Of a stretch of DNA of 64,000 nucleotides, positions 55,078 through 59,546 are shown in pieces. The stretch comes from an uncultured SAR86 cluster bacterium. Lineage in GTDB: Bacteria > Pseudomonadota > Gammaproteobacteria > Magnimaribacterales > TMED112. A program made the translations under genes and the position numbers. The DNA lies in the NCBI GenBank assembly GCA_902526535.1, contig CABZLG010000001.1, positions 10,101 to 74,100 on the forward strand. Direction: 5' to 3'. The notes under the pieces were generated by a model. It did no database searches and was not told the DNA's origin. It saw nothing but the letters and a program-made list of their open reading frames with translations. Numbering within the stretch: the stretch's first letter is position 1; every line of letters starts with the position of its first letter.

Positions 55078-55825
55078 CAAACTTGTTTTAATTTCTGGTT
55101 CAGGAAGAGGCCTTGGAGCATCTATTGCTGAATCGTTTGCAAACAAAGGATATAAGGTTGCTATAAATTACTGTAAGAGTGAAAAACAAGCACACGAATT
55201 AGCAGATAAATTAGGCTCTGATGTAATAGCTTTTTATGGAGACGTTTCCTCTAAAGAAGATGTAGTTGAATTGAATAAGAATATTCGCGACACATTTAAA
55301 AAAGGTCCAGACATCTTGGTAAATAATGCTATGACTGAATATTTATTTAATGGTGATTTAAGAAAAAAAGCTCATGAAGTCACTTGGGGTGAGATTCAAA
55401 ACCATCTTGATGTAACAATTAAGGGATCATTAAATTTGATACAAGAACTTTTCGATAATATGAAAAAAAATAATTTTGGAAGGATAATTAATGTTGGAAC
55501 AAACTTATTTCAGAATCCAGTAGTTCCATATCATGATTATATTATTGCTAAATCTGGTTTATTAGGATTAACAAGAAGTTTTGCCAAAGATCTTGGTGAA
55601 TTTGGTATAACGGTCAATATGGTATCTGGAGGTTTGCTTAAAGTTACTGACGCCAGTGCTGCAACTCCAGATGAGGTTTTTGATGCAATTGCCTCAATGA
55701 CTCCATTGCAGAGGGTTACTACAACTAAAGATTTCTCAGATGCATTAATATTTTTTGCTTCAGATGAAGCAAGATCAATAACCGGTCAAAATCTTACAGT
55801 AGATGGAGGATTAACTTTTAATTAA
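55067..55825 (+). CDS. Short-chain dehydrogenase/reductase (FabG-like subfamily)
   Basis: SGSGRGLG, VNNA, YIIAK (YxxxK), NLFQNPVVPYHDY. Confidence 0.9.
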   Translation: MKDNKLVLISGSGRGLGASIAESFANKGYKVAINYCKSEKQAHELADKLGSDVIAFYGDVSSKEDVVELNKNIRDTFKKGPDILVNNAMTEYLFNGDLRKKAHEVTWGEIQNHLDVTIKGSLNLIQELFDNMKKNNFGRIINVGTNLFQNPVVPYHDYIIAKSGLLGLTRSFAKDLGEFGITVNMVSGGLLKVTDASAATPDEVFDAIASMTPLQRVTTTKDFSDALIFFASDEARSITGQNLTVDGGLTFN

Positions 55826-55867
55826 AAAAAGACCAGAATTCTGCCAAATATAAACGTTGTTAAATGC

Positions 55868-56164
55868 CTAAGAGATTTGTCTAAGATTCTTAAACTTACA
55901 AGTCATGAAACCATTTTGATGATTAATCAAGAATGAGTCATTAATTACATTTTTAAAACTGAAGGAAATTTTATATGGTTTTTTTATAATGCAGCTCTTA
56001 GGGGTAATAATGTCACCTTTAAAATAAATATCATCTTTTAATTTAAAAATGATGTCTTCATTTTTCATAATAAAAATTTGATCTATATCCTTTACAGAAA
56101 AATGGTTGTCCGAGTACAACATTGAGCCAAAAAATAATAAAAATAATATTTTGATAGTTTTCAT
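55868..56164 (-). CDS. Small secreted hypothetical protein (98 aa)
   Basis: Start at 56164 after AGGA; signal peptide MKTIKILFLLFFGSMLYS followed by DNH; two Cys. Confidence 0.7.
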   Translation of the reverse strand: MKTIKILFLLFFGSMLYSDNHFSVKDIDQIFIMKNEDIIFKLKDDIYFKGDIITPKSCIIKKPYKISFSFKNVINDSFLINHQNGFMTCKFKNLRQIS

Positions 56165-56181
56165 ATTTCCTATGTAGTGTA

Positions 56182-56221
56182 TTGTTACAAAACTGTCACT
56201 TAAATGTAATATATATGTAAC
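56182..56221. promoter_or_regulatory. Four 11-bp-phased NTGTNAY heptamers (PhoB/OmpR-family-like operator)
   Basis: TTGTTAC 56182, CTGTCAC 56193, ATGTAAT 56204, ATGTAAC 56215. Confidence 0.55.
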
Positions 56222-56251
56222 TATCTTTTTTGTCAATTAGATGATCAAAAA

Positions 56252-56368
56252 TTAGTCAATTTTATTTTGCTTATTCTTTCTAGAATACGTCTTCTTTTGG
56301 GGTTTTACCCTCATTTTGTACTTTGGTGTTTTTAGATCTTTAGCTATTAGATTTCTTTTTCTTTTCAT
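56252..56368 (-). CDS. Putative ArfA/ArfT-like alternative ribosome-rescue factor (38 aa, not in ORF track)
   Basis: Hand-translated MKRKRNLIAKDLKTPKYKMRVKPQKKTYSRKNKQNKID; motif resembles the ArfA core; overlaps tatC end by 29 nt. Confidence 0.65.
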   Translation of the reverse strand: MKRKRNLIAKDLKTPKYKMRVKPQKKTYSRKNKQNKID

Positions 56369-57050
56369 TGCTTAATAATAAGCCTAATTCAAATAAAAAA
56401 TACATAGGCACAGCAAGAAGTATTTGTGAAATTACATCTGGTGGAGTAAAAATCATGCCAAAAACAAAACACAAAACAAGAACTATACCTCTGTATTCCT
56501 TAATTTTATTTTTATTAAGAATATTTAAAGAAATTAATATATTTACAATTAATGGAACTTGAAAAGCTGTTCCAAAAGCGAAGGAAAGCGTCAAAGCAAA
56601 TGAGTAAAATCTAGAAATGTCAGTAGAAATTTCAAGATTACTTGGCCCAACTGTTGAAAAAAATGCAAGTGCATTTGGAACAACTAAGAATAAGCAAAAA
56701 ATAACTCCTATATAAAATAAAATAGTTGCTAAAAATGTTTTTGAAAAAATAGCTAGCTTTTCAGACTTATATAATCCAGGCGCCATGAAGCTTAAAATTT
56801 GCCAAATAAATATTGGAAGTGAGACTAAAAAAGCAATAAATAGTACAAGTTTCAAAGGAATCAAAAATGGCGAAGTTACTTCAATAGCAATTAGAGTCTT
56901 TTGATCTACTAAATCTAAGAAATGCAAAAAACCATCAAATAAATAATTTGTAAAAGGCAGCAAAACAATAAATGAAATTATAAAAATAGTAATTGAAAAT
57001 AAAATTCTATTTCTTAATTCTCCAAAGTGAGATGAAAGACTACTGCTCAT
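56340..57050 (-). CDS. tatC: Twin-arginine translocase subunit TatC
   Basis: HFGELRNR, FMAPGLY, FQVP, TPPDVISQ, LFE. Confidence 0.96.
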   Translation of the reverse strand: MSSSLSSHFGELRNRILFSITIFIISFIVLLPFTNYLFDGFLHFLDLVDQKTLIAIEVTSPFLIPLKLVLFIAFLVSLPIFIWQILSFMAPGLYKSEKLAIFSKTFLATILFYIGVIFCLFLVVPNALAFFSTVGPSNLEISTDISRFYSFALTLSFAFGTAFQVPLIVNILISLNILNKNKIKEYRGIVLVLCFVFGMIFTPPDVISQILLAVPMYFLFELGLLLSNEKKKKSNS

Positions 57051-57276
57051 CTTCTTTATCAAACTCTTTCATTTTTTTTTCGTTAAAGACTTCTTGCTTT
57101 AATTCTTGATAATTAAACTCTCTCTCTAAGTCTTCTTTTGCATTATCAAATGTAGAGCGGATCTTAATAAAAGACTTCATTAGATCCCTTAAGTATTTTG
57201 ATATTTTTTCTGGTTTTGCGGCAACAAAAAAAACCAGAATAATAATAAAAAGTTCAGGAATTCCTATCTGAATCAT
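57040..57276 (-). CDS. tatB: Twin-arginine translocase subunit TatB
   Basis: IGIPEL, TM helix, PEK hinge, amphipathic helix; between tatA and tatC. Confidence 0.85.
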
Positions 57277-57412
57277 TATCCTCTTTAATCTCTTTTTTGA
57301 AACCTTTCAAAGCTTTTCCTATATCACTTCCCAAAGTTCTTAATCTTTTAGTTCCAAAAACTAAGATTATTATTGCTAGAACAACAATTATCTGCAGCCA
57401 ACCAATGGTCAT
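57254..57412 (-). CDS. tatA: Twin-arginine translocase subunit TatA (52 aa, not in ORF track)
   Basis: Hand-translated [52 protein letters not shown]; GGAG RBS, ATGA overlap with ubiB. Confidence 0.95.
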
Positions 57413-58800
57413 TTCATATCTCCATAGTTTTGATCAAATATTTCTTGTGTTTCCTCAAATCTTTTCACAATCATATATGTAAGTATATGTTTTTTTGATA
57501 CAAGATACTTTACAAGTCCTTTAACACTATACTTATCTTTAAACCATGTTTTTAAGAACGGATTTGCCACACTCCAAAAATCTAATTCAGGATAAATTTG
57601 TCTACCCATACCCTCGATATGAACTAAAGTTTTAATTAAAAGCAAAAAATCATTGTCTAAGTAAAGATTAAATGGTCTCATAGCTTCTAGAAGATTTAAT
57701 AAAAGCTCACCAAATAAAATCTGAGACAGAGGTTTATCTAATAAATGTTCACAATTAATTCTTAAAATATTTTCTAATTCCTCAGTTTTTGTATCCTCAC
57801 TCACCCAATTGGCAAAAATGAAAAGTTGAGCCAAAGAATAAAAATCTTTTTTTAGTAAAGAAGATATCATCTGTGCAATTAATATTTGATTAGACTCAGA
57901 TAATGAACCACATATGGCGTAATCAACTGCATAGTAAAAAGGTTTTTTTGGCGATGTTTTAGCAGCAAAAATATTTCCAGGATGCATATCAGCATGAAAA
58001 AAATTATCTTGAAAAACTTGTTTTAAAAAAATTTTTACCCCACTCTCTGCCAAAGCTTTAAGGTTTAACTTATATTTCTTTAACTCTTTAATATTTGTAA
58101 CAGGAATTCCATCAATATATTCCATAACAATTATTTTTTTGGTCGTATATTTTTCTACAATCGCGGGCACATAAAGAAAACTACTATCTTGAAAATTCTC
58201 GTATGTCTTTTTTGCATTATTTGCTTCTAAACGAAAATCTAATTCATTATTAATAACTCTTTCGTAATCATTGATGATTTTCATTAAATCTATTCTTGGA
58301 TACGATTTTATAAAAAACCTTAATATCCTAATTCCAAATTTTACGAGGTTAATATCTCTTAGAATCTTTTCTTTAAGATCCGGCCTTTGAACTTTTACAA
58401 CAAATTTCTTTTTATCCATAAAAAAAACATGTACCTGTGCAAGTGATGCTGACGAAAGTGGTGTTTTGTCCATGTTATTTAGAATATTTTTAGATTTTTT
58501 CCCCAGTTCATTTTCAATGGTTTTTTTAATGTAATTAAACGATACTGCTTCACAATCATCAGTAAGCTTATTTAACTCTTTGGAGAGTTTTTTTGACACT
58601 AAATCTGTTCTAGTAGAGAGTAATTGGCCTAATTTTATATAGACTGGTCCAAAATCTTCTAAAATCTCTTTAAAATTTTGTTCTGGATTTTTTTTATTTA
58701 TAAATGGTACTAATAGAAAGTTGTATCTAATTCCAAATGTAGAAAATATTCCAGATGCCCGTACTTTGAATAATATATAAAAAAGTCTTAAAACGTTCAT
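57409..58800 (-). CDS. ubiB: Ubiquinone biosynthesis kinase-like protein UbiB
   Basis: [37 protein letters not shown]. Confidence 0.95.
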
Positions 58801-59546
58801 TTAATACCAGAATGAATACATACTATTCCGTTTGTTAGATCTTCAAATAAAACTTTTGAAAATTTATTTTTTTTCAACATTGATTTCAGTTCTTTCTGAT
58901 TTTCATGAGTTCTAATTGATTTAACTAAATACTCATAACTTTTTTTATCATCTGAGACTAATTTACCAATTGTTGGAATAATTTTGTAACTATAAAAATC
59001 ATATAGTTTTGAAAAAGCCACATTATTAACTTTTGAAAACTCAAGAATTCTTAAAGAACCACCTTTTTTTAATATTCTATAAATCTCTTTTAATGACCTA
59101 TCCTTATCTGAAAAGTTTCTAAATCCAAATGAAATTAAGACATGATCAAAAAAATTATTCTCGAATGGCAAAGACTCAGCCTCACTTATTGCAAATTTAG
59201 ATTTATTTATAAAACCTTCGTCCGCAGCTCGCTCCTTTGCTTTAAGTATCATCTCCTTATTCTGATCAACTAACCAAATATTTGATGAAGGGGAATGTTC
59301 ATAAATTAATTTAGCGATATCTCCTGTGCCTGAAGCTAAGTCAAGAATTTTAGATTTATCTTTGATATTTGTGTTTTTTACAAATTGCTTCTTCCAAGCC
59401 CTGTGAAGACCAAAGGACATTAAATCATTCATCAGGTCATAATTATCAGCAACTTGAGAGAAGATTTTATTTACTCCCTTCGTTTTTGTTTTTTTTTCAA
59501 CCTTCTCGTCTCCAAAAAATACTTTTTGATTATCTTTACTGGTCAT
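58797..59546 (-). CDS. ubiE: Ubiquinone/menaquinone C-methyltransferase
   Basis: YDLMNDLMSFGLHR, LDLASGTGD, FGFRN, LEFS. Confidence 0.97.
   Translation of the reverse strand: MTSKDNQKVFFGDEKVEKKTKTKGVNKIFSQVADNYDLMNDLMSFGLHRAWKKQFVKNTNIKDKSKILDLASGTGDIAKLIYEHSPSSNIWLVDQNKEMILKAKERAADEGFINKSKFAISEAESLPFENNFFDHVLISFGFRNFSDKDRSLKEIYRILKKGGSLRILEFSKVNNVAFSKLYDFYSYKIIPTIGKLVSDDKKSYEYLVKSIRTHENQKELKSMLKKNKFSKVLFEDLTNGIVCIHSGIK

Follow-up and report, generated by a model that had tools for sequence, protein, structure and literature searches.

A conserved small gene overlapping tatC in a genus of SAR86 cluster bacteria encodes a DUF7230 peptide that is a probable relative of the ribosome-rescue factor ArfA

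The window analysed here is a stretch of 64,000 nucleotides from an uncultured SAR86 cluster bacterium of the gammaproteobacterial order Magnimaribacterales (assembly GCA_902526535.1, contig CABZLG010000001.1, positions 10,101 to 74,100); the source assembly comprises 771 kb in 28 contigs and is 70.9% complete. Towards the end of the window, on the minus strand, lies a small gene which a preliminary description, made from the letters alone, had read as a hidden ribosome-rescue gene of the ArfA or ArfT type coupled to tatC. The translation of this open reading frame (ORF) is exactly as claimed there, 38 residues followed by a TAA stop codon. Its ATG falls 29 nt inside the 3' end of tatC, in a different frame, and Pfam matches, a shared strand and overlaps of 4-29 nt bear out its placement at the end of a ubiE-ubiB-tat gene string. 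The locus reads as follows:

56252..56368, minus strand: small gene of 38 codons (coding 56255-56368, stop codon TAA at 56252-56254), its product a basic peptide of DUF7230 / ArfA-like type
56340..57062, minus strand: tatC, a 240-residue ORF (PF00902, E = 1.3e-53)
57040-57276, minus strand: tatB-sized ORF of 78 residues, without Pfam match
57254-57412, minus strand: tatA (PF02416)
57409-58800, minus strand: ubiB (ABC1; PF03109)
58797-59546, minus strand: ubiE (PF01209)
57040..59546, minus strand: the whole ubiE-ubiB-tatA-tatB-sized gene string upstream of tatC, with overlaps of 4-23 nt
56208..56236, minus strand: promoter-like site TTGACA-17-TATATT (consensus match, 11/12), directly after the small-gene stop and before the next gene

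Conservation was assessed by a six-frame search with the window peptide over 60 related genomes. The small gene was matched in 27 of the 29 other genomes of the same genus (E-values from 1e-14 to 1.9e-5, 46-84% identity), the two without a match being 60% and 75% complete, and all 27 matches are open frames free of internal stops. Matches in sister families (2/11, 2/10 and 1/10) had E-values of 0.17-0.54, with three of the five crossing stops, and were treated as chance. Across the 28 genus loci, the window's own included, the same ATG opens the conserved part and each copy ends at its own stop codon, giving products of 36-46 residues. tatC lies directly upstream in the genus loci, two of which are cut by contig ends, and the ATG is found 17-38 nt inside tatC in all 27 loci that allowed the tatC stop to be located. 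Since TatC identity across these species drops to 51-59%, the conservation of the small gene spans species-level divergence.

Selection was measured on a 27-codon core in 27 sequences, one N-containing locus being left out. Median pS was 0.79 and median pN 0.21, while the median dN/dS was 0.11, with a finite dS for 137 of the 351 pairs. Summed column entropies of 16.7, 12.0 and 32.2 for codon positions 1, 2 and 3 put the third position at two to three times the others. In an alignment of 24 distinct orthologues, from which three duplicates and the N-containing sequence had been removed, residues N6, K10, K16, Y17, K25, Y28, R30 and K31 are invariant, and the last 5-13 residues of the peptide are variable and hydrophilic. 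The suggestion that this is a genuine small gene is thus upheld by its conservation, its intact frame and its dN/dS: there is virtually no doubt that the ORF is a real protein-coding gene under purifying selection.

The ubiE-ubiB-tat string is presumed to be an operon with the small gene as its last member, the overlaps being our grounds for supposing co-transcription. No Shine-Dalgarno sequence precedes the ATG of the small gene; together with the conserved tatC overlap, this suggests translational coupling. The promoter-like site directly after the stop codon points in turn to the small gene as the last of the tat transcription unit, in a region where eight promoter-like sites were found and 10.1 expected. 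A consensus-match scan found no terminator-like site on the minus strand near the small gene. When metatranscriptome contigs from four runs were placed over 55600-58000, one exact contig covered 56340-56499, taking in the end of tatC with the 29 ORF nt that overlap it, and tatA/tatB were covered in all four; no contig covered 56167-56328, although contigs cannot show absence of transcription. The next gene downstream (55868-56236, minus strand) has 122 residues if started at a TTG, or may start at the ATG at 56165 with a hydrophobic signal-like sequence, MKTIKILFLLFFGSMLYS; it has no Pfam match, and only half of the genus loci (14 of 28) have it beyond the small gene, with identities of 30-84%.

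The search for ArfA-style regulation of the small gene proved negative. ArfA is described as being made from a truncated, stop-less mRNA and as carrying a hydrophobic, destabilising tail (PMC8012679). The ORF with 70 further nt was folded at 25 of the 28 loci, the other three being without a clean flank, and no internal hairpin of the ArfA kind was found in the small gene (median z -0.23); the strongest local 40-nt hairpin, at -12.2 kcal/mol, lies beyond the stop. The genus copies thus differ from arfA in having their own stop codons (28/28), hydrophilic ends and neither an internal hairpin nor an RNase III design. Given the ordinary stop codon, the lack of an internal hairpin and the lack of a hydrophobic tail, output of the small gene is probably not gated by tmRNA tagging.

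Assignment of the peptide to a family required more than the existing models. Six-frame scans of the window's own genome with the hidden Markov models (HMMs) of DUF7230 (PF23876) and ArfA (PF03889) gave no match, so that no Pfam ArfA was found in that genome; no genus-wide ArfA scan was made. The Pfam HMMs are too insensitive for the window copy of the small gene, and profiles of its orthologues were therefore used. Scanned singly, 19 of 24 genus orthologues match DUF7230 (best E = 2.2e-7) and three match ArfA (best E = 0.01, 15.7 bits where the cut-off is 25.5); in a six-frame search, three genus copies lie above the DUF7230 cut-off. The membership of the window peptide in DUF7230 consequently rests on orthology, not on its own score.

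Searched with the genus profile, a set of 5.8 billion proteins yielded 977 at E ≤ 0.01 among its length-matched candidates, and one of 1.84 billion yielded 630 cluster representatives at E ≤ 0.001. Many of the 977, among them many of the closest metagenome relatives, carry a precomputed PF23876 label, and one carries PF03889. The idea that such genes are missed by standard annotation holds in so far as family members are predicted as mere 'hypothetical protein', but gene callers did predict them, and JGI names three of the 977 'stalled ribosome alternative rescue factor ArfA'. Family members are basic peptides of 36-50 residues, with a consensus of roughly (K/R)NP(I/V)AKDLRTPKYRxRVVxSKKxY(S/T)RKxKH, and Pfam lists their function as unknown. 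The peptide of the small gene has the same size and the same basic composition; its genus form reads AKDL-x-TPKY-x-x-RV where that of the sister families, the model's best scorer, reads NPVAK(H/N)A-x-KFNKA-x-VF. A literature search did not find the term DUF7230 in the papers covered, and one for 'ArfA-like' with 'ribosome rescue' surfaced, among the papers listed, only the ArfT paper.

Some family proteins (P0130 and the P0077/P0083 type) have the family unit fused to longer C-terminal parts. One fused protein of 135 residues has a ParB-N-like end, and a group of 80-residue proteins ends in …GKGVVKGDDV…EQGSKDA. Fusions of this kind point to additional contexts in which the basic module is used.

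ArfA (YhdL; PF03889; PDB 5MDV, 5U4I, 5H5U, 5MGP and 7OJ0) is a rescue factor of beta- and gammaproteobacteria that depends on release factor (RF) 2. When the genus profile was run against 177,635 distinct PDB sequences, six matches were obtained at E ≤ 10, all of them to ArfA (E-values 0.18-0.30). They align as L-x-x-P-x-[Y/F]-x-x-R-V-E-K-x-K-K-(gkg)-x-Y-x-R-K-x-K, with Y17 of the peptide on F25 of ArfA and one gap of three residues at GKG. For profile-profile comparison, 34 ArfA sequences were taken from six-frame Pfam loci; homologues found with a Pasteurellaceae ArfA as query were nearly identical to one another and of no use for a profile. The genus alignment matched these 34 in hhalign with 80% probability (P = 1.4e-5, score 28.9), and a 222-sequence family alignment did so with 87% (P = 3.9e-6, score 34.0). 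Two hundred column shuffles of the ArfA alignment gave mean scores of 7.8-8.0 with a standard deviation (SD) of 2.3 and maxima of 19.4 and 17.0, so that the real scores stand 9-11 SD above them; the reversed alignment scored 17.0 and 12.3. The N..A..L..P.(F/Y)..RV...KK..Y.RK.K skeleton named in the preliminary description was therefore recovered by both HMMER and hhalign, and among the Arf families ArfA was the only one matched in the PDB.

Bridging sequences connect the two families. Protein P0149 (...YKQRVERSRKGRGSYSRKDKH...) is found by the genus profile at E = 7.8e-9 and scores 29.5 bits with the Pfam ArfA model, and the first repeat of P0045 (...KYKPRIVKPKKGKGSFKRK...) is found at E = 1.0e-11 and scores 27.4 bits, both above the cut-off of 25.5. 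They contain motifs of the K(G/R)KGS type, RKGRGSY and KKGKGSF, respectively. P0045 is a 70-residue metagenome protein of two tandem family units, the first with the KKGKGSF insert and the second with a short tail of the DUF7230 type. Another gammaproteobacterium (L055) has a Pfam-grade ArfA (39 bits) of only 38 residues with its own stop codon. DUF7230 matches in gammaproteobacterial genomes of 2-5 Mb (L040, L041, L042, L045 and L046) have 53-71 residues and hydrophobic ends as in full-length ArfA, a hint that some of these genes may use the non-stop mRNA design. A look-up in the ESM Atlas gave a DUF7230 cluster at 0.92 and an ArfA cluster at rank 24 (0.89), with recognition below the usual mark, and is a weak lead towards ArfA. 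Taken together, the PDB profile matches, the hhalign scores, the bridging sequences and the hydrophobic-tailed DUF7230 members indicate that the peptide of the small gene is very probably a relative of ArfA.

The structural literature allows the alignment to be read residue by residue. ArfA residues 15-24 are described as a short helix at the decoding centre that contacts 16S rRNA, and its 14 N-terminal residues as becoming ordered upon RF2 opening (PMC8012679). F25 occupies a hydrophobic pocket of RF2 built by V198 and F217, Q27-E30 form an added strand on the sheet of RF2 domain II/IV, and the basic C-terminal part, with conserved KGKGS and KH motifs, lies in the empty mRNA channel (PMC8012679, PMC6299226). 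The corresponding segments of the peptide are:

56333..56353, minus strand: residues 6-12, N-L-I-A-K-D-L, on the ArfA N14-L20 helix, with N6 and K10 invariant
56303..56326, minus strand: residues 15-22, P-K-Y-K-M-R-V-K, on ArfA P23-E30, with Y17 on F25 and K-M-R-V on the Q27-E30 strand region
56255..56296, minus strand: residues 25-38, K-K-T-Y-S-R-K-N-K-Q-N-K-I-D, the basic tail, on ArfA K33-K44
Aligned pairs, peptide to ArfA, first part: N6-L12 to N14-L20; P15 to P23; Y17 to F25
Aligned pairs, second part: K18-V21 to R26-V29; K25-K26 to K33-K34; Y28-S-R-K31 to Y39-M-R-K42

The two proteins therefore share a collinear core, N-x-[IL]-x-x-x-L ... P-x-[FY]-[KR]-x-[RK]-[VI] ... KK ... Y-x-RK-x-K. 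Y17 is invariant in 24/24 orthologues and is followed by [KR]-x-[RK]-[VI], so that the F25 and strand feature of ArfA appears to be present. As had been proposed, the GKG segment and the hydrophobic tail are missing and the gene has its own stop codon, as read from the alignment and the 28 loci. The parts concerned with recruitment and with sensing of the channel look conserved, while the RF2-activation part does not.

The distribution of the family is wider than that of ArfA. Of 101 genomes of the order, 49 have a single copy by the Pfam DUF7230 model (12/25, 7/25, 9/25 and 21/25 by family); this model is less sensitive to the genus form than the peptide query, which matched in 27/29. The sister-family form, ...RNPVAK(H/N)AxKFNKAxVFxDKTKYxRK..., is related to the genus form in hhalign (93%, P = 2.5e-7) and does not adjoin tatC. 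Linkage to tatC is accordingly kept throughout this genus but goes no further, the sister families carrying the DUF7230 peptide elsewhere. In one of them (L043, L236, L239 and L243) the DUF7230 gene is immediately upstream of, abutting or overlapping, a gene of about 322 codons for a PLP-enzyme-like protein (…PGGSIKDRVG…), followed by a cystathionine-lyase-like gene, a conserved neighbourhood unlike that of tatC.

Beyond the order, 400 genomes of the class yielded DUF7230 in 13 and ArfA in five with no overlap; as 0.16 overlaps were expected, this is uninformative. A pattern-seeded scan of species genomes produced 39 loci, which according to the record titles belong to marine Gammaproteobacteria known as metagenome-assembled genomes (one labelled TMED112), Pelagibacterales, Pelagibacteraceae, HIMB59, MarineAlpha5, Rhodospirillales, Bacteriovoracaceae, Flavobacteriaceae or Bacteroidetes, Alcanivorax, Micavibrio and Woeseiaceae. 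ArfA is described as occurring only in some beta- and gammaproteobacteria (PMC8012679), whereas the DUF7230 family reaches Alphaproteobacteria, Bdellovibrionota, Bacteroidota and phages. Among IMG/VR viral contigs there are at least 163 confirmed relatives of at least 592 pattern matches, and 15 records of cultured phages, T4-like Acinetobacter phages included, contain a family member. One is ZZ1p0006 of Acinetobacter phage ZZ1 (L216:2492-2617, plus strand), a 41-residue 'hypothetical protein' in the early region near rIIA, with 49 bits to DUF7230. A phage-borne ArfA-like peptide of this kind could free ribosomes from host mRNAs degraded in infection. In Roseobacter phage CRP-13 (L217:2501-2626, plus strand), a family ORF of 41 codons with a GTG start (…RNPIARDLRQPKYRLRVVPNKKK…) is contained in the annotated gp52 coding sequence but read in a different frame; it lacks the Y-x-RK tail and could be either a gene overlapping gp52 or a copy in decay.

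The cellular setting was surveyed for the partners and alternatives of a rescue factor. The window's own genome contains tmRNA (173 bits) adjoining smpB, as well as RF1, and RF2 was matched in 45 of 46 genomes of the order. Among 30 aligned RF2 sequences, numbered after Escherichia coli K-12 prfB, F217 is invariant (30/30) and position 198 is I in 13 (all 11 of the genus and two of a sister family) and V in 17, so that the 198/217 pocket is kept. In one genome of the genus (L130:742-900, plus strand) RF2 begins in a different frame, and an AGGGGG element immediately precedes the long open frame; such a leader fits the usual programmed +1 frameshift and, by extension, normal autoregulation of RF2 in the genus. 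RF-1-domain genes number two in 87, one in 11 and three in 3 of the 101 order genomes, and exactly two in each of five near-complete genomes of the genus. No ArfB-sized gene is found among the matches listed in this order-wide scan, the uncut RF-1-domain matches having the 340-404 residues of RF1 and RF2. The look at ssrA, smpB and arfB that the preliminary description had in mind thus leaves the peptide as the only candidate back-up rescue factor seen in the order. A complex prediction for the peptide (63-row alignment) with its cognate RF2 (30 rows) scored 0.01 where the mark is 0.32, in a run without controls, and weighs neither for nor against the reading.

With moderate confidence, and largely by analogy with ArfA, we favour a reading of the peptide as a release-factor-dependent rescue factor, a minimal member of the ArfA lineage in the sub-family that goes by DUF7230 in Pfam. 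It would act where a ribosome has stalled at the 3' end of an mRNA without a stop codon: its tail, K25-K33 (KK-x-Y-S-R-K-x-K), would enter the vacant mRNA channel of the 30S subunit, and the segment P15-K22 would then lie against RF2 domain II/IV. The invariant Tyr17 would fill the hydrophobic pocket in place of Phe25 of ArfA, and K/R-x-R/K-V/I would serve as the added β-strand. RF2 would thereby be recruited without a stop codon and peptidyl-tRNA hydrolysis would follow. Translation coupled to the end of tatC would set the output, which we imagine as a low and steady back-up to tmRNA-SmpB. Ribosome binding, RF2 recruitment and this mode of expression are what we infer from the comparison with ArfA.

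Several observations weigh against a role as an ArfA-type rescue factor. At the level of detection, the window peptide itself reaches only 14.3 bits with DUF7230 (E = 0.045; cut-off 27 bits), a Pfam scan shows no match to ArfA at E ≤ 10 and there is no NCBIfam match; the PDB matches of the genus profile are individually weak, with E-values of about 0.2, and in hhalign the sister-family DUF7230 form has an undetectable relation to ArfA (1.5%). At the level of residues, the peptide lacks ArfA residues 1-13, only five basic residues preceding N6, and its invariant K10 falls on A18 of ArfA, where even Thr is described as blocking RF2 activation (PMC8012679). Judging from this alignment, RF2 activation by the peptide, if any, cannot be identical to that by ArfA. 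The peptide is also glycine-free, so that KGKGS is absent and G35-K36-G37 become the three-residue gap, and this species has K-Q in place of the KH motif, H being common in the wider family. At the level of genomes, RF2 was not found in the window's own 71%-complete assembly, which is the sole one of the 46 without a match. Four genera of the order have no DUF7230 match (0/14, 0/6, 0/3 and 0/4), nor do they have ArfB among the matches listed; there is thus no complementary pattern of DUF7230 and ArfB of the kind that would argue for an essential back-up role. Finally, the many phage copies allow a different, phage-centred function.

These points lead to the alternative that the DUF7230 peptide uses its basic tail to bind the ribosome or RNA for some purpose other than release-factor recruitment, its likeness to ArfA being a matter of shared ancestry or shared rRNA binding only. 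Occupancy of the mRNA channel on idle ribosomes, as in hibernation or protection, and a phage-evolved function later domesticated are possibilities. The abundance of the family in viral contigs and its presence in the cultured phages speak for it, as do the absence of both the ArfA activation segment and the small residue at position 18, the lack of a direct ArfA signal in the order's other DUF7230 form and the Pfam entry's silence on function. Yet conservation in the peptide is strongest at exactly the positions by which ArfA contacts RF2 (the R-V strand and the aromatic at F25) and those by which it contacts the channel (Y-x-RK); their order is unchanged and so, bar one indel, is their spacing. 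Moreover, proteins above the Pfam ArfA cut-off are significant matches of the genus profile, some DUF7230 members of larger genomes have ArfA-style hydrophobic C-termini, and a phage too would benefit from ribosome rescue. We consider a function of another kind less likely than release-factor-dependent rescue.

A second alternative is that the peptide is a factor of the ArfT or BrfA type, an independently evolved short rescue peptide that perhaps uses RF1 as well as RF2. ArfT and BrfA are both described as independent inventions (PMC6299226, PMC8012679). ArfT of Francisella tularensis, to which the preliminary description had likened the peptide, resembles it in having about 40 residues and an ordinary stop codon, in not being made from non-stop mRNA, in having no tmRNA-coupled design and, on the reading favoured here, in backing up tmRNA (PMC6299226); the missing N-terminus of ArfA leaves the release-factor specificity open. 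The likeness to ArfT does not extend to the sequence. As ArfT is described, it works with RF1 or RF2, ends in the tail KKGGSTNKK and has no hydrophobic residue at the F25 position (PMC6299226), and it has been linked to a glycine-rich repeat family (PMC6514570), whereas the peptide is glycine-free with an invariant Tyr at that position; it is on this description that the two are set apart. BrfA of Bacillus subtilis (PDB 6SZS) is a small RF2-dependent rescue factor whose basic tail occupies the mRNA channel, but is described as made from non-stop mRNA and as having a distinct N-terminal helix (PMC8012679), and it is absent from the genus-profile matches over all PDB chains at E ≤ 10, which are to ArfA only. 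An origin of this type is very improbable. That the open frame is no gene at all but a by-product of the A-rich 3' end of tatC and intergenic sequence, as its shortness, its richness in lysine, the AT-rich genome, the missing Shine-Dalgarno sequence and the lack of an RNA contig over the ORF body might suggest, is scarcely credible when frame, start and stop are kept at such TatC divergence and under such a dN/dS, when no frameshifted or stop-interrupted copy occurs among the 28 loci and when hundreds of relatives lie in unrelated genomic contexts.

ArfA-type rescue has been described as always gated by tmRNA, by way of a non-stop mRNA. What is new here is a chromosomal, stop-codon-bearing, tatC-coupled ArfA-like form fixed in one marine genus; the small gene would show that an ArfA relative of half the size, with an ordinary stop codon, can be fixed in a genus of roughly 1-Mb marine genomes, and relatives occur in SAR11-type genomes and in phages. 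We would go further only tentatively, with an idea that may well prove wrong: that DUF7230 is a minimal, unregulated form of ArfA, the alternative ribosome-rescue route of the most abundant streamlined marine bacteria (this order, Pelagibacterales and HIMB59) and of many of their phages, recruiting a release factor with about 30 residues and with neither the N-terminal activation segment nor tmRNA-coupled control. If true, RF2 (or RF1) could be opened on an empty A site by simpler means, possibly the ancestral ones, and the range of ArfA-type rescue would reach far past the beta- and gammaproteobacteria. If the peptide is active, a Pfam domain of unknown function would gain a function, the apparent want of a back-up rescue factor in streamlined bacteria would be filled, and studies of RF2 opening in the absence of a stop codon would have a minimal peptide to work with.

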